A stretch of DNA of 32,000 nt from Candidatus Saccharimonadota bacterium (GCA_030429505.1 JAUIFI010000001.1:330001-362000); one strand, 5' to 3'. Positions 3,701 to 26,677 are shown, numbered from the stretch's first letter. Notes: generated from the sequence alone by a model not told the origin. Numbers and translations are program-made.

Positions 3701-3729
3701 TTGAATAAAAGCCTTTTTTGATGTATAAT
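3701..3729 (+). promoter_or_regulatory. Sigma70-type promoter: TTGAAT - 17 bp - TATAAT
   Basis: TTGAAT lies at 3701-3706 and TATAAT at 3724-3729, with an exact 17-bp spacer ending in a T-tract (cctttttt). ATG 3736 begins 7 nt after the -10 box. Confidence 0.5.
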
Positions 3730-3735
3730 GAAAAG

Positions 3736-4272
3736 ATGAGGTCAAAATCCAAAAAGAAACCAGAAGAAGTCACAGAAAACCTCCATATGGTCCCTAATAT
3801 TTTTTCCTGGGAAGCATATGATTACCATCCTCACACTCGCGGTTGGGTATGGATTTTTATTTTTTCTCTTATCGTTTTTGGGAGCGCTATAGCAGTGCTT
3901 CTTTGGGGAGGGCATTCAGGGAGTGATTGGTTTATGGCTTTCACTTTCTTTTTAGCAGCAGCAGCTTATTTTTGGACACATCGAAAAGGTGAGTCAATGC
4001 ATCAAGTTCAGATATTTCCCAAAGCGCTTGTAGTTGATAACCAAATATACCCCCTCAAGGAGTTTGAAGGATATTGGTTTGTTTATAATGAAACTGCGTC
4101 AATCATCCATTTCCAAATCATAGATAAACGAAGAGACCGAAAACTCTCTTTACAAATGGGAAATCAAAAACCACAAACACTCAGGAAATATCTTGCTAAG
4201 ACTAATCTACCAGAGCTTACCGAGAAAAAAGAAAGTTTGCTCGACCTTTGGATCAGAGCCTTAAAACTATAA
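3736..4272 (+). CDS. Small two-TM membrane protein, function unknown
   Basis: The ORF track starts at TTG 3718. I prefer in-frame ATG 3736 because the promoter at 3701-3729 lies inside the longer version. A FSWEAYDY motif is followed by two hydrophobic helices (WVWIFIFSLIVFGSAIAVLLW; WFMAFTFFLAAAAYFW) and a soluble C-terminal domain of about 100 aa. Its stop is 4 nt before the next ATG. Confidence 0.7.
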   Translation: MRSKSKKKPEEVTENLHMVPNIFSWEAYDYHPHTRGWVWIFIFSLIVFGSAIAVLLWGGHSGSDWFMAFTFFLAAAAYFWTHRKGESMHQVQIFPKALVVDNQIYPLKEFEGYWFVYNETASIIHFQIIDKRRDRKLSLQMGNQKPQTLRKYLAKTNLPELTEKKESLLDLWIRALKL

Positions 4273-4276
4273 TTTC

Positions 4277-6538
4277 ATGGGAGATCAAAAAAAAGTTTAT
4301 CAATATCCAACAAACAATAGCGAAAAAAACCAAGAAGAAAGCAACTATGAAGTTGTAACAACGAGTATGGTTCAATCAAGCTTAGAAGAAGCAGAAACAG
4401 CTCAAGAATCCTTGGTTAAAATGAGGGAATTAAGAACTCAATTTTTAGAACGCAGAAGAATCAATACCCTTAATGAAGTTTTTACCGCCATACAAAATGA
4501 TATTGATGAGACCATACAAAATAGTATCAACCTAGAACCAGAAAGCTTTCGTCTTTTCCTTCAACAATATATGTCTTCACAGACAGACCAAGAAAAAGAG
4601 CAATTATTCCAAAGTGATCTTTCTATCTGGCAGAATGACAAGGAATTTCAAGAAGACCTGAGAAAATTAGAAGAAGCAGTTGAAAAAAAGGTAGAAGAAC
4701 ACGTAGATCCAACTTTTTCGCAGATGGTGGGAAATAGTTTTAAATCAGGATGGCAAAATATAAAACAAAGCGGAGAAAATATTAAAACGGCTTATCAAGA
4801 AGCACCGAGTGAATTTGATCCAGATGGGGCTTGGCTCGGTCTGGTTGGGGGATATGCCTCTATTTTCAAAGACAATGTCACTCCCAAAACATTTTTCATA
4901 GCGGCAGGTATTACAGGAGCCTTAGGAGCTTTTCCTAAAGTAGCTGTTCCTGTTTTTACCGCTGCAGAAGAAGGGCTGAAATTAACTGGAAAATTCGGTC
5001 GCACTCTAGGAGGTGCTTGGTATAACTTTTGGATGTCTTTCTCTCGAGAAGACTATATCTGGGAAAATCCTAAACGTCTTTTTGATGGAAACAGAGAATC
5101 GACTCGAGGACAAATGCACTTAACTCAGAATTTTTATGAACTCGATCAGACCACAGAAAAGTTTGTACCAGATGAAATGAAAGGATGGTATCTGAAGTTA
5201 ATAAAAGGAAAAGAGAAACTCACCCCTGCAGAAATAGCTCAAGCTGCAGAATTCTCAGCACAAGTTTTTGATTCAGACATAACTCTAGATCCTGAAGAGT
5301 ACGATCATCTTTACTTTGAATACATAAGATCCGGAGAATGGAATCAAAAAACTGTCAATCAAATGAGACAAGCAATGATTACGGCTTATGTAGGGAGAAC
5401 TATGGATCACTTTTTATCCACAGAAAATGAAGAAGAATATCAAAAGTTTGAAAAAGTATTTCTCGATACGAGAGCAAGTAATAAAGGAATGAGGGAGATG
5501 AGACAGTCAGGTATAAATGTACCAGTTTCTTTTACAGAAAAGAAACTTGAAAGCATGTTTCAAAATACTATTACCAAGGACTTTGCCAAAGTTGAACGCA
5601 AAGGAATTGGTGGTTTTTTAGAAGGGAATGGACTGGGAGACATTTTGGCAGTCTTTGCCATGATCGCAAGTGCAATAACAGGATTAACAGCAGCAACAAC
5701 CTCTTGGAACAAATGGAGAAAAGAGCAAAAAGAAAAAAAAGAAGACAAAAATAAAGACATTATTTCCAGACATAACAAAAAGAAAATACATACCCTTTTA
5801 GACAAAAAGAAAAAAAATCCCAAGCATGTACGAGCTCTACTAGCCCTTTTAGTAGATAGCAAAGTCATAACTAAAAACGCTAAGAAAAAAGTTATGGCTC
5901 AATTTAATGCTCGAAGGTTATTCAATAAAGGGAGAAGTAAAAAAAACGCTGCTGCTCAAGATTTTTTTCACCATCTTTCTACTGGTCCTTTCAGAAATGC
6001 ATTAAATGGAAGTATCGCTGGTGTTGCCAGCGCCTTTTGGAGTACTCTCAATCAGTCAGAATACTTCAGAGGTTTTGATCGAGCAGACATTGAACGTCCC
6101 TCGAAACTTGCTGCTAATTTTGAATCACTCAAACGCAGAATTCATAAAGAAAGTGCTGAAACTATTCATGTCACTACCAATCATGGATCATTTACCATTT
6201 CCAATATCAAAACCGGTTGGGGAACCGGATGGATCAATAGCTTGAACGACCTACGGCGGGAAGTGCCATCTCTATTTACCAAAGATAAATTTCTCTTTAT
6301 TGGAACTATAGAAGGAGAACCTAATCCATCTAAATTGGTCTTTTCTCGAAAAAAATACGGACTTGGCAATACCTTTGCTCTCTATAAAGTAGACCTAAAA
6401 AATCAAACAAAAAATAAAGATGCTACAATGAAGGGAAGAAATCTCTTACGAGTATCCAAAAACTATAAAGTAACCGCTATGACCTTTGGAGCAGCTCCAG
6501 AAGATTTTGGTAATCAGACCACACCACCTCCAGCATAA
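4277..6538 (+). CDS. 753-aa membrane-associated protein, function unknown
   Basis: Long intact ORF with no signal peptide and an acidic, coiled-coil-like N-terminus of about 185 aa. Gly/Ala-rich hydrophobic segments follow (AWLGLVGGYASIF, FFIAAGITGALGAF). A clear TM (ILAVFAMIASAITGLTAATTSW) leads directly into a Lys-rich stretch at 5708-5950. No catalytic motifs recognised. Confidence 0.75.
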   Translation: MGDQKKVYQYPTNNSEKNQEESNYEVVTTSMVQSSLEEAETAQESLVKMRELRTQFLERRRINTLNEVFTAIQNDIDETIQNSINLEPESFRLFLQQYMSSQTDQEKEQLFQSDLSIWQNDKEFQEDLRKLEEAVEKKVEEHVDPTFSQMVGNSFKSGWQNIKQSGENIKTAYQEAPSEFDPDGAWLGLVGGYASIFKDNVTPKTFFIAAGITGALGAFPKVAVPVFTAAEEGLKLTGKFGRTLGGAWYNFWMSFSREDYIWENPKRLFDGNRESTRGQMHLTQNFYELDQTTEKFVPDEMKGWYLKLIKGKEKLTPAEIAQAAEFSAQVFDSDITLDPEEYDHLYFEYIRSGEWNQKTVNQMRQAMITAYVGRTMDHFLSTENEEEYQKFEKVFLDTRASNKGMREMRQSGINVPVSFTEKKLESMFQNTITKDFAKVERKGIGGFLEGNGLGDILAVFAMIASAITGLTAATTSWNKWRKEQKEKKEDKNKDIISRHNKKKIHTLLDKKKKNPKHVRALLALLVDSKVITKNAKKKVMAQFNARRLFNKGRSKKNAAAQDFFHHLSTGPFRNALNGSIAGVASAFWSTLNQSEYFRGFDRADIERPSKLAANFESLKRRIHKESAETIHVTTNHGSFTISNIKTGWGTGWINSLNDLRREVPSLFTKDKFLFIGTIEGEPNPSKLVFSRKKYGLGNTFALYKVDLKNQTKNKDATMKGRNLLRVSKNYKVTAMTFGAAPEDFGNQTTPPPA

Positions 6539-6594
6539 AAAAATTTCCCTTCGATAAGAAAGAATAAAACCCTGTATTATTCATTAATTCAGCC

Positions 6595-6623
6595 TTGTTT
6601 TAGACTCTTTTTTGTGGTATAAT
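6595..6623 (+). promoter_or_regulatory. Extended -10 promoter: TTGTTT - 17 bp - (TGg)TATAAT
   Basis: TTGTTT lies at 6595-6600 and TGGTATAAT at 6615-6623, preceded by the T-tract ctctttttt. ATG 6643 is 19 nt after the -10 box. Confidence 0.5.
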
Positions 6624-6642
6624 AACGAGATTTAAGCATGCT

Positions 6643-8967
6643 ATGAAAAGGTTTTTTTCTCTCAAAAATATTGGTCTTGCCTTCCTGTTTTTTGGATTAC
6701 TTACTTGGATAGATCCGGGAACGATAGCGTTTGCTCAAGCTAATCCAACTCTCCAGTCATTTGCCAGCATATTGTCACATGTAATTCGTATGCTGACGTT
6801 TTTTACTTTGCTTTTTATTAATTTCGGAGGAGATTTACTGGGGGTCGAATACATTACTGGGGATATTCCTCTTGGAACGATCACAAACTTATGGATTGTT
6901 ATCAGAAATATTACCAACGTCATATTTGTAGTTATTCTACTATTTTTGGTATTTTCTAATATGTTTTCCTTTGGAAGTAATAGTAATTGGACTATCAAGG
7001 AAAAACTTCCTCGGGTAATTATCGCTCTGATTGCAATTAATTTTTCTCTTTTAGCCTTTAAGGTTGTAATCGATGGTGTTAATGTTGGTACCAATGTGAT
7101 TTTATCGATTCCCCAAAGCGTACTAGCTAATCAAGACCGAGATAGTATCAAAAAACTCCTTGAACAAGGAGTAGATGAAGATGGTGATCACTGCCATCCT
7201 CCGCACGATCCAAGTCAGCCAGACCCTTTTCCAGTAGGGCATACATATGCAGGGTTACCTAATAATCCCAACTGTAAAGAATTCTATAAACGTTTTAATG
7301 AGCTCCTTTGTCCTAGTGGGGATTATCTTTATGATGATCAATGTGTCGTGTATCTCAACCCGCCCACGACTATTCTTGCCAATAGCCAGGCAGCTCATAA
7401 CTTGATGCTGGCTTTTGGTGTTTATTTGTACCGTCTTGAACAATTACCTGCCTTAGCTGCTCAAATCGGTTCTTGGAGTGGAGTTGTCACCAATGTACTC
7501 TTTTCGGGAATTATGACTCTGGCCTTTTTTGTATCACTCTTAGCTGTATTTATTGTTCTTATTTTTAGGGTTGTAGCCCTCTGGATTTTTATGGTTTTTT
7601 CTCCCTTGATAATTGCGGCAGCTATCATGGGAATAAGTAAGGGAGGGGAAGGTTCGAAAAAATTCATCACCTACCTTCTTATACCACTCAAAGTGGCAGC
7701 AGCATTTTCCGTAACCTTTATCATGATTTCTGCTATGGTGGGTTTTACACCTCCAGGGAGCCCGGTATTCGTGTTTTTAGGTCCACCTCTTAGTGGGTTT
7801 GGTAATGGTATGACAGGGATACTCTGGCAAATTGCCACTATTGGAATTTTCTGGAAACTGGCTTTCTGGGCAGTTGAAGGAACAGAAGCTAAATTCATAG
7901 TTGATAGCATCAAGGGGGGAGCGGAAAGACTTGGAACAGCTGTTGCTAGATATGCTACCATCGATCGTCCTGTTATTCCTTATGTCAGAAGAGATGGTAC
8001 CACAGGAAGAGTGGGACTTAGTGCATTTATTGCTCCTCCACATGGGCAACAGGGTATTTTGGGACAAATTGCCAGTAAACTCGAGAGACAAGCCAGAGGG
8101 CATAATACGGAATTTTTCCGAGAGTTGGGTTTTTTGGAAGAAGCTATGGATAGAAATAGAGAATCTTTAGAGAGACTAAGAACACAAATGCGTTCAGCCA
8201 ATGGACCAAATGCTGTAGGGCAAGCAACGAAGACAGCCTTACAGGAAGTTGGGATTGATGATCTTGGTACAGAAGTAGGGACACAACTCAAAGCAGCTAT
8301 TAAGGAAAAACTAGATGCAGGAATTGTAAACTTAAATGCTGCTAATCAAGCTATTCTGGATAACTTTGGAAATGCTGGGGTGGTGATAACAGATACGCAA
8401 TTAGCAAACTTAGTAAATGATCTTGCAGACAGAAATATTGCTACTAATGCTGACTTTACTCAAGAAGGAACAAACGAAGGAGCCGGAGCTGGGGCTCCAC
8501 CACCAGCTCCACCAGCCCCTTATGCACATGCAAACACATTCGCTAATATTCCCGATTTGATTGCTGATATTCAAGATCCTGCAACAGGAAATACAGTTCA
8601 AAGGCAAGATTTAGGTAAAATGGCGCGAGATGCTGGAGTAAACATTGCAACACTTAAATCAGAACTTGCTTCTAATAACATTACAATACAAGCTTCAAAT
8701 GATACAAACATAAACGTAGATGCTTCAGGAGGACCAGCTGCTACCAAAATTAATAGTGGAGACAATATTACTGCTGCCAACATTCTTGATCAAATCAAAA
8801 CAGCCGAGCGATCCGTTGATTACAACAATACTGAGTGGGAACATATATATGAAGCAATTAAGGGGCAAACAGTAGCAGGAGAAATAATTGACCCATCAAA
8901 AGTAGGAGCAGATCGGGCTCCATACATAAGAAATTTATTTGTCACCAAGGGGTGGATACCAGCTTAA
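6643..8967 (+). CDS. 774-aa polytopic membrane protein with a large soluble C-terminal tail, function unknown
   Basis: N-terminal signal/anchor (LKNIGLAFLFFGLLTWIDPGTIAFAQA). About 8-9 hydrophobic helices lie in the first 410 aa or so. A hydrophilic loop between them holds all four Cys residues of the protein. The C-terminal tail is about 360 aa and contains an AGAGAPPPAPPAP linker. The topology resembles VirB6/TrbL-type proteins, but this cannot be verified here. Confidence 0.75.
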   Translation: MKRFFSLKNIGLAFLFFGLLTWIDPGTIAFAQANPTLQSFASILSHVIRMLTFFTLLFINFGGDLLGVEYITGDIPLGTITNLWIVIRNITNVIFVVILLFLVFSNMFSFGSNSNWTIKEKLPRVIIALIAINFSLLAFKVVIDGVNVGTNVILSIPQSVLANQDRDSIKKLLEQGVDEDGDHCHPPHDPSQPDPFPVGHTYAGLPNNPNCKEFYKRFNELLCPSGDYLYDDQCVVYLNPPTTILANSQAAHNLMLAFGVYLYRLEQLPALAAQIGSWSGVVTNVLFSGIMTLAFFVSLLAVFIVLIFRVVALWIFMVFSPLIIAAAIMGISKGGEGSKKFITYLLIPLKVAAAFSVTFIMISAMVGFTPPGSPVFVFLGPPLSGFGNGMTGILWQIATIGIFWKLAFWAVEGTEAKFIVDSIKGGAERLGTAVARYATIDRPVIPYVRRDGTTGRVGLSAFIAPPHGQQGILGQIASKLERQARGHNTEFFRELGFLEEAMDRNRESLERLRTQMRSANGPNAVGQATKTALQEVGIDDLGTEVGTQLKAAIKEKLDAGIVNLNAANQAILDNFGNAGVVITDTQLANLVNDLADRNIATNADFTQEGTNEGAGAGAPPPAPPAPYAHANTFANIPDLIADIQDPATGNTVQRQDLGKMARDAGVNIATLKSELASNNITIQASNDTNINVDASGGPAATKINSGDNITAANILDQIKTAERSVDYNNTEWEHIYEAIKGQTVAGEIIDPSKVGADRAPYIRNLFVTKGWIPA

Positions 8968-8980
8968 TTTGTTCTTTCGA

Positions 8981-9003
8981 CTGAAAATTTCAGAGCGTTT
9001 TTT
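8981..9003 (+). terminator. Weak hairpin plus T-run after the 774-aa gene
   Basis: ctgaaaatttcag (AT-rich palindrome, tiny loop) is followed by agcgtttttt. The stem is short and weak, so read-through is likely. Confidence 0.2.
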
Positions 9004-9073
9004 GACAAAAAATATAAAAATATCATAGTAATATCAAACAAACTCAAAATACCTAGTATTTTTCGCTCTTTTC

Positions 9074-9082
9074 TGGTATAAT
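9074..9082 (+). promoter_or_regulatory. Extended -10 promoter element TGGTATAAT
   Basis: The context cgctcttttcTGGTATAATgaagggataaacATG shares its T-tract + TGGTATAAT core with the sites at 6615 and 28102. There is no good -35 at 17 bp. A consensus TTGACA at 9002-9007 may belong to a second, upstream promoter. Confidence 0.45.
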
Positions 9083-9094
9083 GAAGGGATAAAC

Positions 9095-12000
9095 ATGAAG
9101 TTTTTTCTGAATCACCTACGAGCGTTCCAAAATGCCAAAGGAAACCAATTTCTTTGGCACAGTGATGATGATCCCGAGGAGCGAATGGAAGTTGGTGGAA
9201 GTTCGGAAAATTCAAGATCAAAAGAATCTAGTAGTGGGAAAAAAATAGAAGAAGTCCAGAAAGAAGTACAAGAAGCTATCGAAAGAGCACAAAGAACTCA
9301 GGGAAGAAATACTGAGGATTTGTATGACAAGCTCAAGAAAGAAACAGACAGTAGATTACAAACTGCTACAGAAAAATTTGAGAAGCTCTTTGAATCTGCA
9401 AAAGCCCAGATGATAGAAGAGCAGAAAGGAAAAGAACTTACTCCAGAACAAGAGCAAATACTTCAGGAATTAGAAACGAGGTTTCGTGAAGCACACGAAA
9501 TAGCCAGTGAAGTAGTCATCGGTATTTTAGAAACAGGAAAAAGTACAAACGAACAATACAAAAAAGTTTCTCAGAAGGTATCAGCGTTAAACAAACCGCT
9601 TTTAAAGGTATACCAAGAATTGTTAAAAAATGAAAATGACCAAGAAGCGATTGCCACAGCAATAAAAAAACTCTCCAACCTTTGGAATAAAAATAAAAGA
9701 GATCTCAGAAGTGGAATTCGAAACATAAAAGAGATTCTTGATTCTCAAAAACAATTTCATCCAAGATTTAACCAAATGTGGAGTGAAGAACTCTTGGGAG
9801 AAATTGATAATATAGAAGAATCTATTGTTAATCTTACATTAGCCGAAGAGAGGGAAGAAATAATTCCCACTAACTCAAAAGATATAAAAAACTTGTATCG
9901 AAGTTTATTGAATCTCCAAAATCGAAGTGACTTCCTTGGTGGAGGGTTTAATTACCTTCGTGAAAAAATACTTCAAAAACTTGATGATTTTACTAAAAAA
10001 ATAAGTCAGCAAGTAGGGGATATGCCCGAGGTCGGAAATGCACCAGATCATATAAGCCTTAGTATAGTTCCGGCAACTCCCTCAACAACATTTGCCAGTT
10101 TAGCAAATGAAAGCTTGGATCAGCAGGAGCAAGAATTGGATGAAATAAAAGAGGATTTTCAAAAAAACTATCAAGAGGTAGCTCCATTTCTTCCTTTGAT
10201 AGTAAAAGATTTAGATCAAGCCATAAAAGCTTATCGAAGAATAGGAATTCAAGAATTAGGAGGGAGGAGGCAACGAGCGATAGAACAAAAATTAAAAGAA
10301 ATATATGTAATAGACGACCCCTATCTTTTGAATGATAATTTGCCAAAAGTTTTTCAGGCATGGCAACAAATAGATCAAGAGTTTAAAGATGGAGAAGAGC
10401 ATATAGAAGATATAGATTTCTATAAAGAACACCTTCGGGACTTGAAGGCTTTTAAAAATACACTTGTTGAAGCTGGAGAGGATTTAAAAGCAAGAGAAGA
10501 AGCTCTAGAAGCTGAAGCTAGAAAAGGGATGCAAGAGATTGAGAAAGGAAAGGGAAAAAATGAACAAACTTCTACTCATACAGCAGCCGGAATTACCCCG
10601 GCAGTTATCGGTACGGGGGGGGCGGAAGTAAGAGGAACTCCGGAGGGAGGAAGAGACGAAAGTGAAGAAAATGAAAATCAAGAAGAAGATCCGGAAGGAC
10701 AAGATAATCTTGAGCATGAAGAACAGGAAGGTGGCGAACAAGCACCAGTCCAGAATAATCAAAATAACGGTAATAATGATCAACCCGCAGTTGAGGAGGC
10801 TAACGAAGACCAAGAAAATAACGAGCTAGAACCAGATCAGGAAGATGGAGCAGGTGGGAATGATCAAGAGCCAGTACCTCAAAATCCAGAAAATCAAAAT
10901 GATGAAATTGCTCAGGCTGAGATTGAAGCAGGAAAACAAGAATTCCAGAGAGATTTTATCACCTATAAGGAAATTATTGAGCAAGTAGAAGAACACGTTG
11001 AAAAAGATTTACAAGCACTCGCCAATGGTCATTTAACCGAAGAAATCATTCAAGAAAAGTATGGAGTGGAAAGTTCTGAACAGATGAGACAGGTATGGGA
11101 AACTCAAGCTGGATTTAAACAGACTTTTACCGATATAAATCAAGAGTTTGAGGAAGGACGAGCTACTATGGAAAGACTTGGGCACTATAGAGGTCAACAA
11201 AGGCGAATGAAAAGGTATACAGAAAAAGCAGGAAGATTTTTAGAAGAGATGAGAGAATACGAACAACCTTCAAGAGAAGCGTTGAAAAATTTAGAATTTT
11301 TGGGAAACGAAGATGATCCCCCTGATCCAGAGAAGTTTAAAAAGAATTTTAAAGCCAAACAAAAACAATTTAAACAAAGGATAAAACGCTATAATCATCA
11401 TATTAAAAAAGCTCAAAGACATTTAAATGAAGATAAAAATCTTAAAGACAAAGATTTCAAGGAAAAATATGGAGCCAGTAGAGAAGAAATCCATGGAAAA
11501 CTTCAAGGACACCGGAATTTAAGAGAGGTATTTGATTCTGTTTGGAAACCTTTTAAAAAAGGAGATTTTGCTGATAAATGGCTCGAAAAATATAGGCAAA
11601 GTGAGACAGCTGCTTTGAGAGATTTTCGTGATTGGGGCGCAATTGCCAAAGCTTCTGATGAAATAGAGAAAAAAACAAAAGAACTTATGGGATGGAGTCA
11701 AGATTATGAGAACAAGAAAAAAAACATTGCAGAGAGAATAAAAGATCAACTCAAAACCTTTGATTTTAAATTTATCAGCATCAGTGGATTGATGTTGCTT
11801 GGAAAGCGTATTGGAGAGAAGTGGAAACGTGAGACAGAAGATCAGTTCAAAGCAGAATCAGAATCTCTTGGAAGCATTATACCCGGGAGTATTGGTCAAG
11901 AGTTTGAATTACTTGAAGGGAAACGTCATAGCGAAAACGTAAAAGAATTTGAAGGCTTATATGAGGGCAACGAAATCTGGCAAATATTCGACACCATGAA

Positions 12001-13396: not shown

Positions 13397-13411
13397 GTAG
13401 CTTGATTTTAG

Positions 13412-13440
13412 TTGTTTTTTCCGTTCTAAAAAGTCATAAT
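13412..13440 (+). promoter_or_regulatory. Candidate promoter: TTGTTT - 17 bp - CATAAT upstream of the giant gene
   Basis: TTGTTT lies at 13412-13417 (the same -35 as at 6595) and CATAAT at 13435-13440. ATG 13479 is 38 nt downstream. No TGn extension. Confidence 0.3.
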
Positions 13441-13478
13441 CGTATCTGTAAAAGCCAACAATAGAAAGCTTTATACGG

Positions 13479-13571
13479 ATGTTTTTCTTCATACAAAAAT
13501 CAAACAAAAAAAAATCATTCCTCATATGGTTGATTTTGGTACTCATCTTTTTTTCCGTAAGCACGCAAGCT
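13479..13571 (+). other. Sec-type signal peptide of the giant protein (aa 1-31)
   Basis: MFFFIQKSNKKKSFLIWLILVLIFFSVSTQA|FF has a basic n-region (KKK), a hydrophobic core of about 15 aa, and small residues at -3/-1 (T-Q-A). Confidence 0.7.
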
Positions 13572-16500: not shown

Positions 16501-19500
16501 AAAATGGTTATACTCGAATTCAAGATGGAAAAGCTTCTATCCAATTTTATCCTGGAACAAAGGCTGGTCAGGCAAAAATCAGAATCGAAACACTAGATGA
16601 AACTGTAGCTCCGCAATTTGAAAATCTCATCATTCTTCCTGAAAAGCCTCTTCGTCTTACCATAAAAACAGCTTCTAATTTTCTTATTCCAGAAGGAGAT
16701 TTTATTCCAGTTGAGGCTATTCTTACTGATCTATACGGTAACAAAGTTTCAACAGAAATATACGAATTTATCTGGAAGACAGAAAATGCAAACACAAAAC
16801 CACTGCTTAACAAAGATTCATCAACCCTTCTCATCCAACCATCTGGTACTAATTTAGACGTGTTAGCAGAAGTATATGTCAAAAGTATCCCTTCACTTCG
16901 AGCTGAAAAAAGGTTTCCTACCACCATCAATCCGAAGATAGATATCCAAGCCTCAAGTACAGAAATTCTAGCCGGATCTGACGCCCCAATTTCATTATTG
17001 TTGACTACAAAAACCAGTCAAAATCAAAAAATAAACACTAATTTTACTGCAGATATATTTATATCTCCAGCAGATTTAGGAGAAATTGTACCCTCCATTA
17101 CATTCGAAAATGGACAAGCACTTTTAGAATTTTTCCCCGGAACCAAAAGTCGACAAGGGCAAATACAAATCCAAATTCCCGGGTTTGAAAAAACCATATT
17201 TGACTTAGAAATATTGCCCGAAAAAGCTGAAAAAATAAATTTGTCCGTCGATAAAAATACCATCAATAGAACCGATGAAACAGATTTGAATCTTACCATC
17301 GAAATTGTTGATCAGTTTGGAAACATTGCCACAGATTTTAAAGGAGAAGTAGCACTCGCTTTTAATGAGGCTGAAATTAGAACTGAAAGTCAAAATGACG
17401 TATTAGTCACACTAGGTGTCTTTGGGGAAGTGAGTAATCAAAAAGCCTATATAGATGAAAATATTAATACTACTGTAGGGAGTCAAGCTTCAGACAAAGA
17501 TCTACTTACCATTAGCGGAGGGAATCTGGTGCGACCTGAAAAAGGGAAGAAAACTGTCGAAGTAACATCATCGACCAAAACAGGACAAGTCTTTCTCACG
17601 GCTAAGTCAGAAGGACTAATCCCAGGGGTCGTAGAATTTGAAGTCATCGATTACTTGACTGTATCCGATATAGAGACACTCAATCCAAAATCACTCTTAA
17701 CCCTTTTTCTCAACTTTGAAGCAGGGGATAAGTCTACTGAAAAAAGCTTTGCCAATCGTTATCTCATGTCAGGAAATTCACAAGCCGTTGGTGCGCTCCT
17801 CAATGATCCAGATCCTTTTGCAAGAAAAGGCTTTATCGACACCAGTGGTGAAGTTTCAAAAGATTTAAAAATACATATCGAACCAGGACCTTTTCTGGAA
17901 ATGAAACTACAAAATTCTGATAAAATTCAAACTACCACTCGACTTAATGTCGTTCCCAACGCTCCTCTTGCCCTCGTTACAGAAAAGCAAAATAAACCTG
18001 GAGTTTATTTTCTCATTGATCCTAAACAAAAAGATGATTTTACTAAAAAAGAAAACACTATTCTTTTTCAAGAGAAACCACTAATAACCCTGCAATCTAA
18101 CGGTGGTATAACATTAGAAATCAGTAAGATTGAGCTCAAACCAACTCCTATTCATTCTCTCTTTGAATGGGATGTATTGATAGATGAAAAAACCCAAGCA
18201 AAATTTCTTATTATTCCTAGTTTTTCCACTATTACCGCCATTGATGATATCACAGAGAGTGGAACGAGACCTGGTATTTGGGTTCAGTCCCTTTCTTCTG
18301 AATATCAAATTGTTCCTGGATTGACTGGGAAAAGTACGAATGAGGATTTAGGCGTCTTTTTTGTTTCTACCACGACCAAAGAAGATACCGAGCGTTTACT
18401 TGGCTCACCACGTCACTCTATTGAAGATATACAAATAAATGAGGATTTGGTTTGGGAGGGACTTTGGAAGCCAGGTACATTTTTGGGAGCTGGAAATTCT
18501 ATCGGACAGTCAAATCTATGGGGAAGTAGTGATGCTTTTATTCTTCTAGGAGATCCATCACTCAATATCGCAAATGATAACACTCGTTCTTCAATTGGTA
18601 TTCAGCCAGATATCGGGAAACAAATCTGGAAAAGTCCAGTAGGAAACATTGATCAGATCTTAGTACTAGACATTAATGGCGACGGCAATGGCGATATCCT
18701 TAATCGAGTTGGCAAAGAAGTCTATGCTCTCTATCAAGACGATGAACAGCTCGATAATTTTCGTTCTATAGGTCCTATTCTCAGATTCTCCGATGGAGTT
18801 AAAACTTTGGCGAGTTTTGATAATGATTTCGATGGTTTTTGGGAACTCTTACAACTCAACGAAGCCGGACAAACTTTTATCCACAAAAATACCAATGGAA
18901 CATTCCATCGACAAAGCATTGACCTAGGCATTCCCAACACAATTCTTCGCATTGAAGATGCAAAGCTTAATACAGATGAATTTCGAGACTTATTTGTACT
19001 AGATGACAAAAACTGCACCTGGAAAATACTCGGGCAAAAGAATGGATTCAATAAACCACAAAACTTAGCTTGCCTGAATCCTGATTTCGTAAAAATAGAA
19101 GAAACTTTTACGGTGGCTGATAATCAGGATCCCAATGATCCGTATTTTACTCCAACCAAATTCAGCCATCTCAATCACTGGCTGGTTTCCTTTAATGGCA
19201 TTGAAAACGATTTGAAAGACGATCCTGACCAAATAAGATACCTGACTACTTTTGAAACAGAACGCACTCCTTTTGTACCTTTTTCCAAAAATAAACAAAT
19301 CGATACAAACCTCAAAATTACCCAGATCCAAGAAAAAGAAGATCCCAAACTCCAAGAAGGAGATACTATAGATATAGAACTCGAAATTGAATCTCAACAG
19401 AAGTTAACCAATGTACAATTTATTCCTTCTAAATTTGAAGGTTTTGCATTTGTAGAAAACTCTCTTCAATGTGATGTTTGCACAAAACCCATAGCATTAA

Positions 19501-22500
19501 AACCTCGTACTCCCGAAGGACTCTGGTGGGCATGGGATATACAGATTCCTGCCAAAGAAAAAATAACCATCACGTGGAAGATGAAGGTATCAGACATCCC
19601 TCCTATTCGTTATTCCATAGATGATTATTACGGAAAAGATGATGTCGACGATATTGTTATTCCTTGGCAAACAAGTAACGACCAGCAAATTCTCAGGCTT
19701 CCTTCCAATAGCAATCCTGCGCATAACTTGGAAATAGAAAATATTCCGGTAGTAGCTCCTATAGACCAAACTTCATTTCTCGCTAGCCAAACCGACACGC
19801 AATTATCAAATGGAATTACCTCTGGTATTAAAGCTGACAGTGATTCGGATGGATATCCTAATCTGTATGATGGACCAGGTATTGGGGATGATATGGATTT
19901 CACAGTCAATGGCATATCCAATGCCATATCTGAACACATGAACACACTCAATAACGAAAAAGAAAGTACAGAATGTCCTCAAAATGATGGACTCCCACTT
20001 ATTCCAGAAGTTTTCTTAGCACCTGGATTTACACCCACCTATACCCCCCCTATTACCGTTCCTGGAGGATTTGATGGAGGAACACCAGCTTTTTGGATAC
20101 CACCATCACCCATTTCCAGCGTGCAAACTTCTGCTATGCGATTTTACGTCATGCCCTCAACTACAGGGAAGGTCTCTTTTGCGACCTGCTTTGGAAGTTA
20201 TCCTTCGAGTATAGTTTCGCCCTTATGGAATGCAAATTGCTTTACTATGGCTCCACCAAATTTACCAAAAAAATGTATGGGACAAATAGCTCCCACTATA
20301 AAAAAGCTCAAAGAAAATCTTTTCTCATATAGTGATCAGCCTTGGAATCAAGGCAGTATGGAGCCAAAAGCTGATCCTACTATTACAAATCAGCAAATTT
20401 CCGGTGTTGACGTTATCAGTACATGGTTGCAAGATCAGTACCGAGAATTTGGAAATAGTTCGCTACCATCATTGAATGTTAAGTCACCAGATCTCAATCT
20501 TGAAAAATCAGATCAAGATCAAGATGTTATTCAGGCTTTATCTGAATCGCCATTTGTAAACCTTCAACAAGAGCAAAGATTAATTCCATATGCAAATGTC
20601 TCAGAAGAGTCACTAGAAAAAATGAAGAAAGATTATGCCGAATGGAACGATCATTTTCAATCATGGGAAAAAGACGGACAAGAAAAAATTAGTAGCTTTG
20701 AACAAGATATAAAAACTGCTGAAAGTGAAGGAAAAGATACGAGCAATGAAAGAGAAATTTTAGTGAATGCCAAAGCTCACTTAAAAGAAGGACAAAATAC
20801 CGCCTTTGCCGTAGAGCAGAAAATGAAAACAGTTGAAAATTATAAAGATCAGCAAGATGTTCTACTTACCATTCCTTCACAAGTCACAGCTATCTTGGAA
20901 GAAGTCCTTCAACATGCCAACACCATGTCTGAATACTTCAAAAGCGTGAATGATTCCGTCACCAGTTCATTGAACGAATGGGAAACTTTTCGAGACACAT
21001 CTGAACCCATTGTAAAATCGTGGGAAGCTGTGCCAGACACCTTAAAATCATTTATCAAGAGTTATCCAAGTTCACAAGTCGATCGAGGAAGTATGCAGGA
21101 ATGGCTTCTTCGCATTTTTCTAAGCGGTGTGGAACTTCCTATTATCGGAGCTCCTAATCTCCCGAATGTAAATCTTGATATATCAGAAATGACTTTTGGC
21201 TTCGATATTATTGCTCCACAAATTCAGTTTGAACCGGTAGATATGGCGATTTTTGAAATACCACCAAAACTTGAGCCATTCCCTCGTTTGCCAGATATAA
21301 ATGATTCTGAGTCCTTTACTCCTCATTCTTCAAACATCGGAGACACCCTCCTCACTACCACCATTAGTCAAGAATCAGCTATTCCCAACGTTGATAGTCC
21401 TCGAGCTTTCCCCACTCAAAAATCAGCCTTTCCCACTACATCAGTTGATTTTCAGCCCATGCCACCCGTCCAAAAACTACCAGAGATGCCCTCTATTGAT
21501 TTCAACGTTCAAGTACCAGAATTAGAGCTTCCCTCAATTCCTGAAATTCCAAGTCCACCAGCTCCACCGAACGCTCCTGATGTTCCGAGTCCGACAGCTT
21601 CTCCAAATACTCCCAATATATCCGACATCCCAGACTCACCAAACACTCCTGACATTCCTGATGCTCCAAGTGTACCAGAAATGCCAAGTATTCCTGATGT
21701 CTTGAGTCCTATTGAAACCATTATGGAAATTCCAAAAGCTCTTCTCCCACTCATGGGGCTACTGAAAACAGGTATCGCTCCAGTTCCCGAATGGTATCTA
21801 AAAGGATATACGACTCAGCTCACTAATCGTACTGACATTATGGGACTTGATTTTGCTCCGGGAGCCTTATCTCCAGTTCCCGCAAAAACGACCACTCCTC
21901 CAGAAATCAACATAAAAGTAGAGCATGATTTTGTTCCCGAACTGAAACAACTGAGTGACACGGTAAACATTTTAGAAGAAACATTTCGATGCGTTGTAGA
22001 AGGTATTCGTAGTTCGACAAAAGGCGACCAAGATTCTTCTGAGTGTTCAACTCAGGGAGAGCCTATCAGTCAAAAAAAATCTCGAAGTTTTGCCTTCCTT
22101 GAATTACTCAAACGAGGTCCCAACATTATTACTTCTCTTGGAACAGCCAAACTAAGAAACTGGCTCGCCACCAACGTTGCTATAGACGAAATTGCGCAAA
22201 GCCTTCCAAGCAATTTCAATGCCACCACCTTTGAAACAACACGAAATGCAACTCCGAAAAAAAATGACGGTATCTATTATTATGATGCAAATACAGACAC
22301 CGCAGAACTCATTACTAAATTTCCTATGACACCACCAATGACAGCTACTTTTGCTGATCTCGGTACTGATGGAAATGAAGAAATTATCTATAGTTTAGGC
22401 GAAGAGCTCTACTTAAAGTATCGAGTTGTTCCCGATGCGAAAGTACGTGAAGACGAAGAAAAAGATGAATGGGAAGCTTTATTTGATGATTTTATCCAGT

Positions 22501-24353
22501 GGTCATTTGAAGAATGGAAAGAAAAATTCTCTCCCACCCAAAAACTCATCTCCGATACCAACGTTGACGGTTCAAATATAAATTTTGAACGTCTATCAGA
22601 AAATATATCCTATTTTGAATGGGTGCTATCAGAACGTCCTGATAATATTTTCGAAATAGGTGATAAAGCAGAAGACAGAAAGTCAAACCAGTGGCAACGC
22701 ACAGCCTTCATTATTCGAGAAAAACCACCTCTCTACGAAATAAGACCCAAGACATCACAGGTGTCTACCATCAAAGGATCTCCCATCCTCTATGCTGCTC
22801 CCGAAGAAGAAGTACCCAAAATGTCCCAGTCAGACTGCGAAGATCCGGATATAATAAAGCCGTTCTATCCCACAGAATCTATTTTAGTTGGAGTAGGACG
22901 ATCATCACGAATGGAAATTAGAGTCCCTCCTCGCGCTGGACAAGAAGAAGAATTTCGAGAAATCGTGCTTCGAAGTGGTGAAGAGACGGTAGTCGAATAC
23001 GCAGAGATTTGCCTCACACGTGGGAAAATAAAACGCATCTCTACCCAAGATCAAGTCAAAGGAAATGCCAGAAAAGGTATCTATCTTCCCTCAGGTTCTC
23101 GTTTCGAACTTGGTCCCAAAGAACGCATTGATTTGACCATCTTTGATGGTACAACCATTACTATCGAAGGCAATGAAACTTATGAAATTTATTATTTTGA
23201 AACTCAAGAAGAGGCTATTGATCACTTTAAGTATTTACAAAGTGGAAATTACTATGGATTTCTCATGGCACAAAAAGGGGATCAAAAAAGCTATTTTCAT
23301 CCATCATTTCTGCATGATCCGCAAACACAAGCCGATACGAGACCTCCAGAAATAAAAATATCAGGGGGAGTGACAATAGACACAACTCTTTTTCAAGAGA
23401 TTCCTATTGACGCTTCAGCTACGATTGATAATGATCGAATACAACGTGTCTGGTGGGATACAGACTCTACAAAAGATAGTGATGGAGATGGGAATTTTAC
23501 CAATGATGTAGATTTTCCTCTCGCCAATGAGTTAGAAAAATATACCCCCAGACAACTCCTCAAAATATCACTTCCAGGATACGAAAATCCCGGTAATTAT
23601 ATTATCACTCTCAATGTCGAAGATCCGGCTCAAAATCAAACTTCACAAGAAATAAAGATTCAAGCCAAAGTTCCATTACTCAAGCTCACAGAAAGCTCTA
23701 TTCGAGATCAAAAAATCAAAGGAAACGTTGAAAGTGGAGAAAGCAATGTTCCTATTCATATCATGCGAAAACGGTCTGGGGAACCCTGGGAAACCCTCAC
23801 CAAAAAACCAATTCTATCTCAACCCAATGGACACTTTGAGACATCACGTCTTGGGGTATCTGAAGGACTAAAAATATACGATTCAAATGAAAAACTCATC
23901 GCAGAAATTCTTCCAAATGGTCGTCCCATCATAAAAGATTCTCAATACGGCTTCATCATAGAATCCGCAACAGGAGAAAACCCTTTTCAAATCAAGATTC
24001 GTGATCGTCGAAATAATCCTATTGCTTTTGTTTCTTTTCAAAGAGAAAAACAAATTCCACTCAAAACAAAAGATACAAATCCCGATGATTCTTTTATCTT
24101 TCAAAAATCAAGCAGCCAAAAGCAAGCGTTCCAAGATGCCATTGCCCTCGTCGATGTATCGAAAAATAAAACGGTTGGTATTCTTGATCAAAGAGGGGAC
24201 TTTTATGTTCTGCCACCTGAACGTATGTTTTTCCGGATAAAAAATGGAATGGATGGAACAACCCCACTAGTCTTCGAAATATTTTCTGCAGACAAAAAAA
24301 AGCGAGGAGAATTTTCTACCACCAGCGCTTCAAAAATATTTTTATATAAATAA
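13479..24353 (+). CDS. 3624-aa secreted giant multidomain surface/adhesin-like protein
   Basis: Single uninterrupted 10.9-kb ORF with an N-terminal signal peptide. It contains five Ig-like repeats, FG-GAP-like Ca-binding blades, a DSDSDGYPNLYDG Ca-binding motif, a PKD-like domain and a PxxPxx repeat. Many Cys residues sit close together in small clusters. There is no C-terminal LPXTG motif or TM anchor. Stop is TAA, followed by a strong hairpin. Confidence 0.9.
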   Translation: MFFFIQKSNKKKSFLIWLILVLIFFSVSTQAFFDFFDDNLPHTPEVKRTPVVSLLVEESLLDNKDLKERIGQYALNVQKKINGQVVQLPVPKDASPLDIFEGNAHLYFSGFNADGKSQLVGTVLIGDIPLPIVEKNGALWPTIFPYTDIERPSYLWNEASQRFIYNPKGDHEPEIWHGHIYSDTNGGKNITDQEEADELRDKELIAYFDQNHLVHTGTTTYGKRVLFVDLLLQKEGLNTTLRSYYNTWVNNIEDILYSRFNKHWAQSILATENLENTVPWGLLSESAKPKSIPNNSEKTSGLPDIQSKLLIEKFIRPYSSAWADYLDILYERIKKAGRWDATQIDTTISLVTRKDMASAILLKGMNDTLEAKLNELLSSNNVAASISVPKITDDYFTGGAQLEGQTLYWNGVDRTNLTTENCSLLRGVTKDNTHPYAQLVETNRTFNIDTVDSCASGYAGCCADNLEIDSSTLRYSIKTSGSPPNIVSACSVTQATLPIFDLAGTREVTSGNQGASGCIDIINTDNEDPDRTHRFDSLMIHNEPRVTTIDTQVQSMKTIAIPVDDPRGFSFYDHSKTFYRLSYFNLFDMRDYFKSSSDVTRQTLLKQEILNQLGTKIQEINTIINTANTASNARLAADRLLNWPGSPAGGTCSYSQIETNPDSFTTKIEWTETCVAPISSEKIVRYYETATTLSEDVLKNLIQSLDIDKVTESIVWLDKDLSNKNRTVLEKALSTTSVFQDFFFDASFNGYEFVEIIGEKAEDKIQENKGILSTFEQGESEDGDYELSKRESNKFQTKEKKRNTFLGFDFKKIFVKTDENTPDKKIIHEDVNGETKITTKNNAASSESFVRSIQVIPSEIKQSSTDLTPIDVEITLKDKNDHFLSSDFSSQVTLQFSSNDASRFFTILPAKTQTVTKGKATFQILPKGETFGGKLTLSATVGKRSSDPVPITLTPFSLLTNISRKEIPVKNSEGSLITVKVQDQNQNLSRVKDNTLIRFTSDWGNFSKNGYTRIQDGKASIQFYPGTKAGQAKIRIETLDETVAPQFENLIILPEKPLRLTIKTASNFLIPEGDFIPVEAILTDLYGNKVSTEIYEFIWKTENANTKPLLNKDSSTLLIQPSGTNLDVLAEVYVKSIPSLRAEKRFPTTINPKIDIQASSTEILAGSDAPISLLLTTKTSQNQKINTNFTADIFISPADLGEIVPSITFENGQALLEFFPGTKSRQGQIQIQIPGFEKTIFDLEILPEKAEKINLSVDKNTINRTDETDLNLTIEIVDQFGNIATDFKGEVALAFNEAEIRTESQNDVLVTLGVFGEVSNQKAYIDENINTTVGSQASDKDLLTISGGNLVRPEKGKKTVEVTSSTKTGQVFLTAKSEGLIPGVVEFEVIDYLTVSDIETLNPKSLLTLFLNFEAGDKSTEKSFANRYLMSGNSQAVGALLNDPDPFARKGFIDTSGEVSKDLKIHIEPGPFLEMKLQNSDKIQTTTRLNVVPNAPLALVTEKQNKPGVYFLIDPKQKDDFTKKENTILFQEKPLITLQSNGGITLEISKIELKPTPIHSLFEWDVLIDEKTQAKFLIIPSFSTITAIDDITESGTRPGIWVQSLSSEYQIVPGLTGKSTNEDLGVFFVSTTTKEDTERLLGSPRHSIEDIQINEDLVWEGLWKPGTFLGAGNSIGQSNLWGSSDAFILLGDPSLNIANDNTRSSIGIQPDIGKQIWKSPVGNIDQILVLDINGDGNGDILNRVGKEVYALYQDDEQLDNFRSIGPILRFSDGVKTLASFDNDFDGFWELLQLNEAGQTFIHKNTNGTFHRQSIDLGIPNTILRIEDAKLNTDEFRDLFVLDDKNCTWKILGQKNGFNKPQNLACLNPDFVKIEETFTVADNQDPNDPYFTPTKFSHLNHWLVSFNGIENDLKDDPDQIRYLTTFETERTPFVPFSKNKQIDTNLKITQIQEKEDPKLQEGDTIDIELEIESQQKLTNVQFIPSKFEGFAFVENSLQCDVCTKPIALKPRTPEGLWWAWDIQIPAKEKITITWKMKVSDIPPIRYSIDDYYGKDDVDDIVIPWQTSNDQQILRLPSNSNPAHNLEIENIPVVAPIDQTSFLASQTDTQLSNGITSGIKADSDSDGYPNLYDGPGIGDDMDFTVNGISNAISEHMNTLNNEKESTECPQNDGLPLIPEVFLAPGFTPTYTPPITVPGGFDGGTPAFWIPPSPISSVQTSAMRFYVMPSTTGKVSFATCFGSYPSSIVSPLWNANCFTMAPPNLPKKCMGQIAPTIKKLKENLFSYSDQPWNQGSMEPKADPTITNQQISGVDVISTWLQDQYREFGNSSLPSLNVKSPDLNLEKSDQDQDVIQALSESPFVNLQQEQRLIPYANVSEESLEKMKKDYAEWNDHFQSWEKDGQEKISSFEQDIKTAESEGKDTSNEREILVNAKAHLKEGQNTAFAVEQKMKTVENYKDQQDVLLTIPSQVTAILEEVLQHANTMSEYFKSVNDSVTSSLNEWETFRDTSEPIVKSWEAVPDTLKSFIKSYPSSQVDRGSMQEWLLRIFLSGVELPIIGAPNLPNVNLDISEMTFGFDIIAPQIQFEPVDMAIFEIPPKLEPFPRLPDINDSESFTPHSSNIGDTLLTTTISQESAIPNVDSPRAFPTQKSAFPTTSVDFQPMPPVQKLPEMPSIDFNVQVPELELPSIPEIPSPPAPPNAPDVPSPTASPNTPNISDIPDSPNTPDIPDAPSVPEMPSIPDVLSPIETIMEIPKALLPLMGLLKTGIAPVPEWYLKGYTTQLTNRTDIMGLDFAPGALSPVPAKTTTPPEINIKVEHDFVPELKQLSDTVNILEETFRCVVEGIRSSTKGDQDSSECSTQGEPISQKKSRSFAFLELLKRGPNIITSLGTAKLRNWLATNVAIDEIAQSLPSNFNATTFETTRNATPKKNDGIYYYDANTDTAELITKFPMTPPMTATFADLGTDGNEEIIYSLGEELYLKYRVVPDAKVREDEEKDEWEALFDDFIQWSFEEWKEKFSPTQKLISDTNVDGSNINFERLSENISYFEWVLSERPDNIFEIGDKAEDRKSNQWQRTAFIIREKPPLYEIRPKTSQVSTIKGSPILYAAPEEEVPKMSQSDCEDPDIIKPFYPTESILVGVGRSSRMEIRVPPRAGQEEEFREIVLRSGEETVVEYAEICLTRGKIKRISTQDQVKGNARKGIYLPSGSRFELGPKERIDLTIFDGTTITIEGNETYEIYYFETQEEAIDHFKYLQSGNYYGFLMAQKGDQKSYFHPSFLHDPQTQADTRPPEIKISGGVTIDTTLFQEIPIDASATIDNDRIQRVWWDTDSTKDSDGDGNFTNDVDFPLANELEKYTPRQLLKISLPGYENPGNYIITLNVEDPAQNQTSQEIKIQAKVPLLKLTESSIRDQKIKGNVESGESNVPIHIMRKRSGEPWETLTKKPILSQPNGHFETSRLGVSEGLKIYDSNEKLIAEILPNGRPIIKDSQYGFIIESATGENPFQIKIRDRRNNPIAFVSFQREKQIPLKTKDTNPDDSFIFQKSSSQKQAFQDAIALVDVSKNKTVGILDQRGDFYVLPPERMFFRIKNGMDGTTPLVFEIFSADKKKRGEFSTTSASKIFLYK
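16032..17651 (+). other. Array of five bacterial Ig-like (Big_1/invasin-like) domains (aa 852-1391)
   Basis: Units of about 95-140 aa repeat the same signatures. One is G(K/Q)A..(F/L)..PG(T)K.GQ..I (KGKATFQILPKGETFGGKLTLSA; DGKASIQFYPGTKAGQAKIRI; NGQALLEFFPGTKSRQGQIQIQI; KGKKTVEVTSSTKTGQVFLTA). Others are L.D..GN (ILTDLYGNKV, IVDQFGNIAT) and ILPEK(P/A) linkers. Confidence 0.65.
18630..19049 (+). other. FG-GAP/VCBS-like repeats (putative beta-propeller blades)
   Basis: LVLDINGDGNGDIL has the DxNxDGxxD Ca-binding loop. FDNDFDGFWELL and NTDEFRDLFVLD follow at a spacing of about 45-55 aa. A further copy, FADLGTDGNEEIIY, lies near nt 22340-22400. Confidence 0.5.
19350..19595 (+). other. Possible DUF11/CARDB-like beta-sandwich
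   Basis: GDTIDIELEIESQQKLTNVQFIPSKFEGFAFVENS...GLWWAWDIQIPAKEKITITWKMKV follows the pattern G-D-x-I-x-hydrophobic ... W-x-I-x-I-x-A-x-E-x-I-T-I. This is a pattern-level resemblance only. Confidence 0.3.
21531..21710 (+). repeat. In-frame tandem repeat: 10 x 18 bp encoding hexapeptide P-x-x-P-x-x
   Basis: The units are PSIPEI PSPPAP PNAPDV PSPTAS PNTPNI SDIPDS PNTPDI PDAPSV PEMPSI PDVLSP, each 18 nt, starting at 21531 (codon 2685 of the giant ORF). An outlying PEMPSI unit at 21480-21497 uses different codons. Confidence 0.9.
23343..23669 (+). other. PKD-like domain near the C-terminus of the giant protein
   Basis: IPIDASATIDNDRIQRVWWDTDSTKDSDGDG...GNYIITLNVEDPAQNQTSQEIKIQ matches the PKD pattern (W-D-x-x-D-G core, G-x-Y-x-hydrophobic-T-L-x-V-x-D). 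Confidence 0.5.
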
Positions 24354-24398
24354 AACGCGTATCATGGTTCACATAGAAGAGGTGGTGATACGCGTTTT
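24352..24398 (+). terminator. Intrinsic terminator hairpin (possibly bidirectional) after the giant gene
   Basis: A perfect 13-bp inverted repeat, AAAACGCGTATCA (24352-24364) / TGATACGCGTTTT (24386-24398), encloses a 21-nt loop. The GC-rich core ACGCG pairs, and the right arm ends in TTTT. The left arm begins AAAA, so the minus-strand reading also ends in a U-run. Confidence 0.6.
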
Positions 24399-24820
24399 AA
24401 GCTATGAGAGCAAGTCCATAAAAGAACAAGCTCAATTGCGCTGACGAAGACGCAAGCTCCCCGATATTGTTAAGGACATTTGTTTCGAGCGGTCCCACGC
24501 TCTATTTGTTTGTGTTTGAAAAAAGTGATTCGGCTCGTCATGCCGAGAAATGGGGAGATAATTTCGATCTTTACACACGATAAACATGGTAAAAACCGAA
24601 AAACTCCACATAGAAATATATCGAAGAACTGTTTATTGTAGCACATATAAAATGAAAATACAAGAAAGAAAAAAGAGTTTTTTGGAAAAGATAAAACGGA
24701 AAAATTAGATCTTTTGCTGCTCAGATGTTAGGAGAAACAATTTATAGTTTTTCAAATGAACTCATGGAAAAGGTGGCGGATGTGCTTTACGGAAGTAATG
24801 TGGAAAATGATCAATAGAAA

Positions 24821-26652: not shown

Positions 26653-26677
26653 AGGAGGGCATTTTTTAGCGACTTTT

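Follow-up and report, generated by a model that had tools for sequence, protein, structure and literature searches.

What is a run of five genes without functional names, amounting to about 2% of a 1-Mb genome, for? Such a run occupies much of the window analysed here (the whole stretch of 32,000 nt). Its closest relatives lie among Patescibacteria of the Gracilibacteria/Peregrinibacteria type, bacteria with genomes close to 1 Mb in size and a presumed life on the cells of other organisms. To our knowledge, the molecular basis of such host contact is not understood, and we know of no cultured member among these close relatives. Conserved clusters of orphan genes are common in Patescibacteria; the core of this one is shared across a lineage of class rank but went undetected in every curated family library that we searched. 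The original prediction had seen in the block a candidate cell-surface or host-attachment apparatus. The reading we prefer, which we hold tentatively and a little short of probable, is that the block encodes a lineage-specific, envelope-spanning platform carrying a Sec-exported giant surface protein; by analogy, this platform possibly serves in host attachment.

The window (G+C content of 37–40%) contains five consecutive ORFs on the + strand, with the positions and spacing originally predicted: g1 (3718–4272; a small membrane protein of 184 aa if read from TTG 3718), g2 (4277–6538; 753 aa, starting 4 nt past g1), g3 (6643–8967; a polytopic membrane protein of 774 aa), g4 (9095–13396; a protein of 1433 aa lacking a signal sequence) and g5 (13479–24353; a Sec-signal-bearing giant of 3624 aa). 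The intergenic gaps are, in order, 4, 104, 127 and 82 nt. Products identical to g2–g5 are present in a public protein collection, all of them encoded on one contig of 1,023,206 bp, and carry no functional name there. Pfam searches confirmed that housekeeping genes bracket the block: on the left, an NTP_transferase gene and the C-terminal part of the gene for DNA polymerase III alpha; on the right, the genes for inorganic pyrophosphatase, PGK and GatB and, beyond these, a metallophosphoesterase gene, an RNase H-like gene and the gene for ProRS.

The block had been described as one same-strand run whose only strong terminator comes past the last gene. A terminator-like hairpin (24351–24399, + strand; a 15-bp stem followed by UUUUAAG) lies directly past the g5 stop codon, as predicted, with a folding energy of −21.6 kcal/mol and a z-score of −5.67 (0 out of 200 shuffled sequences fold as well). 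It is the only strong hairpin of the block: none of the three internal gaps contains a hairpin that beats shuffled sequence. There are also promoter-like elements inside the block, however, and a single operon can therefore not be taken as given. The promoter-like site of g1 (3701–3729, + strand) consists of TTGAAT at 3701–3706, a 17-nt spacer and TGTATAAT at 3722–3729. This site stops 6 nt short of ATG 3736, so the true start of g1 is probably ATG 3736 (giving a protein of 178 aa) and not TTG 3718, and the transcript would be leaderless or nearly so. The extended −10 element TGGTATAAT is found at 6615–6623 (+ strand), 20 nt ahead of the g3 start codon, and again at 9074–9082 (+ strand), 12 nt ahead of the g4 start codon; TGNTATAAT has five matches in the window against 1.1 expected. 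Across related loci and the window, the pattern TG.TA.AAT is found upstream of g3 in 15 out of 20 loci, of g4 in 11 out of 20 and of g1 in 13 out of 20, or 13 out of the 19 orthologous loci (up to 120 nt were scanned for g1; the pattern missed the window's own g1 site, as TGTATAAT is without the spacer base). It was found upstream of g2 in none of 20 loci; among the 15 loci whose sequence covers the g5 start, none has it upstream of g5. Elements ahead of g1, g3 and g4, and never ahead of g2 or g5, suggest three transcription units: g1–g2, g3 and g4–g5. The elements are matches to a consensus; their positional conservation is nevertheless hard to account for in another way, and it would tie g5 to g4.

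In most of the loci (L001–L048), the TGGTATAAT-type element starts 11–31 nt before the start codons of g1, g3 and g4, a distance that points to leaderless mRNAs or mRNAs with very short leaders. Most genes of the window show no Shine-Dalgarno-like sequence ahead of their start codons.

None of the proteins g1–g5, searched individually, has a significant match in Pfam, NCBIfam, PHROGs, PADLOC (thus no match to an anti-phage defence system) or the sequences of the PDB, and what the PDB yielded to sequence and profile queries was limited to coiled-coil or chance matches. Two weak PHROG matches (E-values of 0.001–0.004) are to families of unknown function and involve low-complexity or transmembrane stretches of g2 and g4. 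Lenient scans of single members of the families (25 g3 proteins, 10 distant g3 proteins and 12 g4 proteins) revealed no recurrent family, and tblastn searches of plasmids with g3 and of phages with the C-terminal domain of g4 found nothing. Profile searches thus returned none of the confident but unrelated assignments that would have spoken against a common apparatus. A motif scan agrees with the original prediction that the five proteins lack HExxH. Its claim that they also lack a Walker A motif fails to the letter, as [AG]x4GK[ST] occurs at residue 143 of g4 and residue 110 of g5, but stands in substance, since neither site is P-loop-like: orthologues of g5 do not keep the lysine of its site, and the g4 site sits in the poorly conserved N-terminal half of the protein. 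We found no description of a g1–g4 module in the literature searched. The g1–g4 core appears to be new by exclusion, having no detectable homology, rather than as a demonstrated new mechanism.

The first two proteins are small or fast evolving. g1 has a transmembrane hairpin at residues ∼40–90 (from a hydrophobicity scan), and its family shares an N-terminal W.A.DYHPH.RGW motif, the hairpin, a beta-rich C-terminal domain and an invariant terminal LDLWIRALKL. Two transmembrane helices followed by a beta-rich domain of ∼90 aa are also the layout of bPH (YdbS/YdbT-type) membrane proteins; this likeness is architectural only, as a Pfam search at E ≤ 1 gave no bPH_2 match. g2 has two hydrophobic segments (one at residues ∼190–224, weak and placed at 206–224 by the scan, and one at residues 452–475) around a loop of ∼230 aa, with an acidic helical N-terminus and a Lys-rich stretch past the second segment. 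Of the five proteins it evolves fastest: alignment columns average 20% identity, and none is invariant.

For g3, the scan gave at least seven hydrophobic segments; an N-terminal segment is signal-like. Its conserved helical core spans residues 36–462 (6748–8028), with W84, R88, N106, K119, R309, W314, P321 and P348 invariant and D144 nearly so. The protein further has a four-Cys loop (residues 184–234; 7192–7344), in which three of the four cysteines are invariant or nearly so, a highly conserved loop NWTIKEKLPK, and a poorly conserved C-terminal tail of ∼310 aa with an Ala/Pro-rich linker. The AF2 model has a mean pLDDT of 63; the core is mostly at 70–92, and values fall below 50 in the loops at 187–207 and 367–387. 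A profile search of 1.84 billion representative sequences collected 600 clusters (at 50% identity) with E ≤ 1e-30 and 1,151 with E ≤ 1e-10. At E ≤ 1e-3 there are 10,049 representatives, a number that would reflect either a much wider Patescibacteria superfamily or a count inflated by the composition of transmembrane segments; among the best 150 of these 10,049 matches, all named members belong to Gracilibacteria or Peregrinibacteria. Three g3 relatives (P0116, P0126 and P0171; 1257–1328 aa) have an extra N-terminal extension of ∼500 aa, in which a small conserved domain is combined with a long disordered stretch and a transmembrane segment; it has no detectable similarity to g2.

g4 was predicted to be a signal-less coiled-coil/acidic protein, and the analysis supports this description: a hydrophobicity scan found neither a signal peptide nor a hydrophobic segment, and the acidic low-complexity stretch lies in the variable, helical or coiled-coil N-terminal part (∼850 aa). 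We presume the protein to be cytoplasmic. Only the C-terminal ∼600 aa are conserved, with a conserved domain at residues ∼860–1330 (11672–13084). The AF2 model is of low confidence (pLDDT 51.8). In a comparison of 21 diverse homologues, 17 residues of g4 are kept in all or in all but one, and 11 of them are G926, D975, G988, W992, D993, W1036, W1044, D1182, W1186, D1234 and D1237. This Asp/Trp pattern suggests a functional site and not a mere scaffold; in a domain that is predicted to be all-helical, the set looks like a ligand-binding or catalytic site. The D-x-x-D pair at residues 1234–1237 (12794–12805) is invariant across the 21 homologues.

Gene order is the evidence that the block is more than a neighbourhood. 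We gathered the DNA around relatives of g3 and of g4 and scored it by tblastn and with HMMs of the five families; once duplicates at ≥97% identity were merged, 40 distinct loci remained. The complete order g1-g2-g3-g4-g5 is found in 10 of the 40 loci, and with the window in 11 genomes. Most other loci end at contig edges and are compatible with the same order (123--, 1234- or ---45), and at all loci whose sequence extends upstream of g4, g3 directly adjoins g4 and g1 lies ahead of g3. The order g1-g2-g3-g4 is kept in more than 20 distinct loci with differing flanks, down to ∼23–30% protein identity. The g1 HMM matches a gene adjoining g2/g3 in all syntenic loci (at E ∼1e-55 even in the distant L035 and L036), g1 and g2 are spaced by 0–8 nt in nearly all loci, and the g2 position is filled in all syntenic loci (deep-branching relatives sometimes have one extra gene). 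The prediction of a conserved, co-directional unit of genes of unknown function is thus strongly borne out by synteny across many genomes, the test that had been named beforehand.

The unit itself is smaller than was predicted. Around ten further lineages also have g1–g4. The deep-branching relatives (L032, L035, L036, L048, L050, L051 and L052; ∼30% identity for g3 and ∼23–26% for g4) are among them, and no giant gene follows g4 in L032, L035, L036, L048, L051 and L052, where downstream sequence is present. In a distance tree of the g3 core, the deep-branching lineages are basal and the g5-bearing loci form the ingroup. As judged from gene order and this tree, the evolutionary unit is an ancestral four-gene core, g1–g4, to which g5 is linked only in the clade of the window; so of the predicted five-gene unit, the order shared by 11 genomes stands, but the core is g1–g4. 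That deep-branching lineages keep the core without g5 points to a core function independent of an adjoining g5. The flanks differ between clades, consistent with a module that moves as one unit: one clade likewise has dnaE and the NTP-transferase gene ahead of g1, and the deep-branching loci are flanked by rpsF-ssb-rpsR and thrS, or by genes for a P-type ATPase and an aminotransferase. g3 is also found by itself in about 10 loci, which are dispersed in the tree and in which housekeeping genes surround it. All protein relatives of g3 come from Gracilibacteria, Peribacteria, Peregrinibacteria and unclassified Patescibacteria MAGs, and all are labelled hypothetical.

At one locus (L001:1–6732; GCA_965660445.1), two PKD-repeat proteins and a rhomboid protease are encoded directly upstream of the cluster. 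One of the PKD-repeat proteins has an N-terminal T4SS_pilin domain (PF18895); the arrangement is seen in this lineage only.

As predicted, g5 has a signal peptide (residues 1–32) and has neither an LPXTG motif (no match to LP.[TSA][GAN] or LPxTG) nor a C-terminal transmembrane anchor: the only hydrophobic segment is at residues 10–37, is signal-like and ends in ...STQA/FF, and all g5 orthologues have a signal-peptide-like N-terminus. The signal is followed by a conserved Cys-containing N-terminal domain (residues 40–600; 13596–15278), an Ig-like region (residues ∼830–1500), a conserved FG-GAP-like region (residues 1600–1900), a variable coiled-coil and Pro-rich region (residues ∼2330–2900), a conserved C-proximal region (residues 3000–3200 and beyond) and a PKD-like motif (residues ∼3290–3390). 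The adhesin-type modules that had been predicted are less secure: the Pfam signals are all sub-threshold, although the Ig-like and FG-GAP signals recur. For example, Invasin_D3 scores 23.3 bits in g5 against a Pfam cut-off of 33 (E-value of 9e-5), and Invasin_D3 and Big_1 are each found below threshold in three out of 10 sequences (g5 and nine orthologue fragments). FG-GAP_3 was found in one of these 10 sequences, below the Pfam cut-off (E-value of 2.7e-4) and not in the window's g5 itself, where the corresponding region (residues 1600–1900) is a peak of conservation with DxDxDG-like motifs. Neither g5 nor the nine orthologue fragments contain an SLH domain according to Pfam, a domain that the method does detect, as other proteins in related loci gave SLH matches. 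Alignments of g5 with its orthologues stay collinear for more than 3,100 residues, with peaks of identity at residues 1–600 (36–53%), 1600–1900 (33–48%) and 3000–3200 (42–56%) and a variable stretch at 2400–2900, and the gene has no DNA-level repeats; together these argue for a conserved multidomain protein and not a fast-shuffling repeat adhesin.

One g5 orthologue (L003:17998–20547) has a Cys-rich insertion of ∼350 aa inside the N-terminal domain (alignment columns 505–767), with the motif DETGIDCGG.C..C. Cysteine-rich repeat proteins have been reported in Peribacteria, and the insertion is reminiscent of them.

Several known systems pair large surface proteins with dedicated partners. In Mycoplasma pneumoniae, which is a small-genome, host-dependent bacterium with a wall-less or monoderm cell, the terminal organelle combines the coiled-coil/acidic scaffolds HMW1–3, membrane proteins and the P1/P40/P90 adhesin complex; its adhesins are themselves transmembrane proteins, and its genes are spread over several operons. 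The block would be parallel to it in concept only, with no homology: g1–g5 match none of the terminal-organelle families (HMW, P1/P30/MgpC) in Pfam, whose models cover Mycoplasma adhesins, or in NCBIfam at E ≤ 1. The accessory Sec system (for serine-rich-repeat adhesins) and LapA with LapBCE/LapDG provide dedicated partners for the export or retention of giant adhesins, and they contain SecA2/SecY2 or ABC ATPases with recognisable domains. The block resembles them in that a gene for a giant surface protein lies beside genes for membrane and cytoplasmic proteins, but it has neither an ATPase nor a recognisable domain, and the signal of g5 is of the ordinary Sec type.

The closest parallels to g5 are giant proteins from its own group (Peregrinibacteria/Gracilibacteria/Absconditabacteria), in a size range of 1,200–4,200 aa: extracellular proteins of large size, with FG-GAP modules or rich in Cys, are known from Peribacteria (Anantharaman et al. 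2016, PMC4736985), and Vampirococcus lugosii encodes giant membrane/surface proteins (PMC8080830), both read as attachment factors. g5 shares with them a signal peptide and, going by sub-threshold signals in g5 or its orthologues, would also share the FG-GAP and Ig-type modules; it most likely belongs to this known class of giant FG-GAP/Ig-type surface proteins, as judged from these shared features. Those giants, however, were described singly, as variable attachment candidates, without a conserved four-gene partner module (PMC4736985, PMC8080830); g5 is collinear and conserved in our comparisons, not strain-variable.

How could the five proteins work together? In the platform that we favour, g1–g3 would form a membrane assembly, with g4 as its cytoplasmic scaffold or effector domain. 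Exported g5 would be retained by the docking of its conserved N-terminal domain on outward loops of g2 and g3, and would project its Ig-like and propeller-like modules off the surface; touching a host cell is the most plausible purpose. As the block encodes no ATPase, assembly would have to draw on Sec and on energy supplied by genes outside the block. The membrane and cytoplasmic assignments (from hydrophobicity and the helical AF2 core of g3) are consistent with this platform, as is the 82-nt gap between g4 and g5, which contains neither a promoter-like element nor a hairpin. The distribution of cysteines (none in g1 and g2, two in g4, four in the g3 loop and conserved ones in the N-terminal domain of g5) fits an outward g3 loop and an exported g5; against this, simple helix counting would place the g3 loop on the cytoplasmic side. 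The platform also fits the attachment role proposed for the giant proteins of this lineage (PMC4736985, PMC8080830). Against it, adjacency is what would link g5 to g1–g4; the core is found without an adjoining giant in deep branches, g3 is found alone in about 10 loci, and the domain signals of g5 are sub-threshold. g5 is moderately conserved along its collinear length, unlike rapidly diversifying host-recognition adhesins, and the invariant polar or charged residues in the g3 helices, together with the Asp/Trp set of g4, hint at transport or catalysis and not at passive anchoring.

Some of the same observations would suit a quieter role, in which g1–g4 form a housekeeping membrane–cytoskeleton complex (for shape, division or wall/S-layer organisation), and g5 is a structural envelope protein or a mere neighbour, with no specific host-contact role. 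Vertical inheritance, a fixed order over a class-level lineage and housekeeping surroundings are what such a complex would show, g4 is a very long coiled-coil protein like many bacterial scaffolds, and both the occurrence of the core without g5 and a g5 that is collinear rather than hypervariable would be expected. We nevertheless consider this role unlikely, if worth serious attention: the proteins show no similarity to known divisome, elongasome or S-layer components (SLH domains included), the very fast evolution of g2 is unusual for a core morphogenetic protein, and g3 stands alone in several lineages.

The conserved residues of g3 raise a further possibility, namely that g1–g4 are a new membrane channel or a secretion/uptake machine, possibly distantly VirB6-like, that moves DNA, lipids or proteins through the envelope of a cell dependent on a host; in the clade that has g5, this giant would be an accessory, serving as a tip or adhesin. 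The g3 helical core has invariant Arg and Asn residues and a near-invariant Asp, beside the conserved NWTIKEKLPK loop, and Patescibacteria, lacking lipid and nucleotide synthesis, must import these building blocks (PMC4736985, PMC8080830). Comparison of the g3 model with the PDB gave a single lead: TrwI/VirB6 of the R388 type IV secretion system (7o3v_J) has the highest target-normalised TM-score (0.44), but the match is not significant by fold (Foldseek E-value of 9.6, probability 0.13). g3 and VirB6/TrbL proteins (TrwI 7o3v, pTi VirB6, PrgH and Tn916 Orf15) are alike in being polytopic, all-helical membrane proteins, and the Gram-positive VirB6-like Orf15 of Tn916 (725 aa) is similar to g3 in size and in its long tail. 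hhalign sets an invariant S-P of g3 against an invariant G-P of VirB6, yet the probabilities of the g3 profile against pCF10 PrgH, Tn916 Orf15, pTi VirB6 and a five-sequence VirB6 alignment are 0.1–0.8%, and Pfam TrbL/VirB6 gave no signal in the window's g3 or in 25 members of its family even at E ≤ 10. The T4SS_pilin-domain protein just upstream of the cluster in L001 would suit a conduit, but has this position in one lineage only. Neither in fold nor in sequence or profile is g3 significantly similar to VirB6, and the cluster is without a VirB4/VirD4 ATPase, VirB8 or a hydrolase; no VirB4, VirD4 or other conserved P-loop protein is encoded in or next to the cluster at the loci examined, where the neighbours are housekeeping genes. 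A conduit of this kind is therefore, in our estimate, rather improbable. It is far less probable still that the five genes form no system at all and merely share a strand: the internal promoter-like elements, the solitary g3 genes and the lack of any annotation joining g1–g5 would allow it, but mere co-location is largely refuted by the g1–g4 order in more than 20 distinct loci with differing flanks and by the tight g1–g2 spacing.

A bolder extension of the platform, which we regard as doubtful, would make g1–g4 an unrecognised envelope-spanning machine of Gracilibacteria/Peregrinibacteria: g3 would act as conduit or energy-coupling subunit (through its intramembrane Arg, Asn and Asp), the C-terminal domain of g4 would be enzymatic or motor-like (through its Asp and Trp residues and D-x-x-D pair), and in one clade the machine would hold a 3,600-residue extracellular fibre for host capture or feeding.

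If the core does carry the suspected attachment giants, it offers concrete targets for multimer modelling, metaproteomics and cryo-ET, and would serve as a marker set for the lineages that own such an apparatus. Even as a housekeeping envelope complex it would comprise four new protein families, with at least 600 clusters at 50% identity for g3. Its size, its deep conservation and its tie to surface giants make the attachment question directly testable.

The window also offers some observations on the genome itself. The 13 genes of the window (9,983 codons) contain no in-frame TGA, against 599 out of frame, and their stop codons are TAA in 11 genes, TAG in two and TGA in none; the genome thus keeps the standard code, in which TGA is not a sense codon. 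Gracilibacteria are a lineage known for code 25, and many relatives of the block are filed under that name, yet the window uses the standard code. Between the terminator of g5 and ppa there are ∼420 nt of non-coding DNA (24400–24820) with short ORFs only, and with no Rfam match and no tRNA. Further to the right, the longest forms of the pgk ORF (25414–26697, − strand) and the gatB ORF (26564–28087, + strand) overlap head-to-head by 134 nt. Since the Pfam domains do not start until residues 52 and 44, respectively, translation of both genes probably begins at internal Met codons, which would leave a short divergent promoter region separating them.
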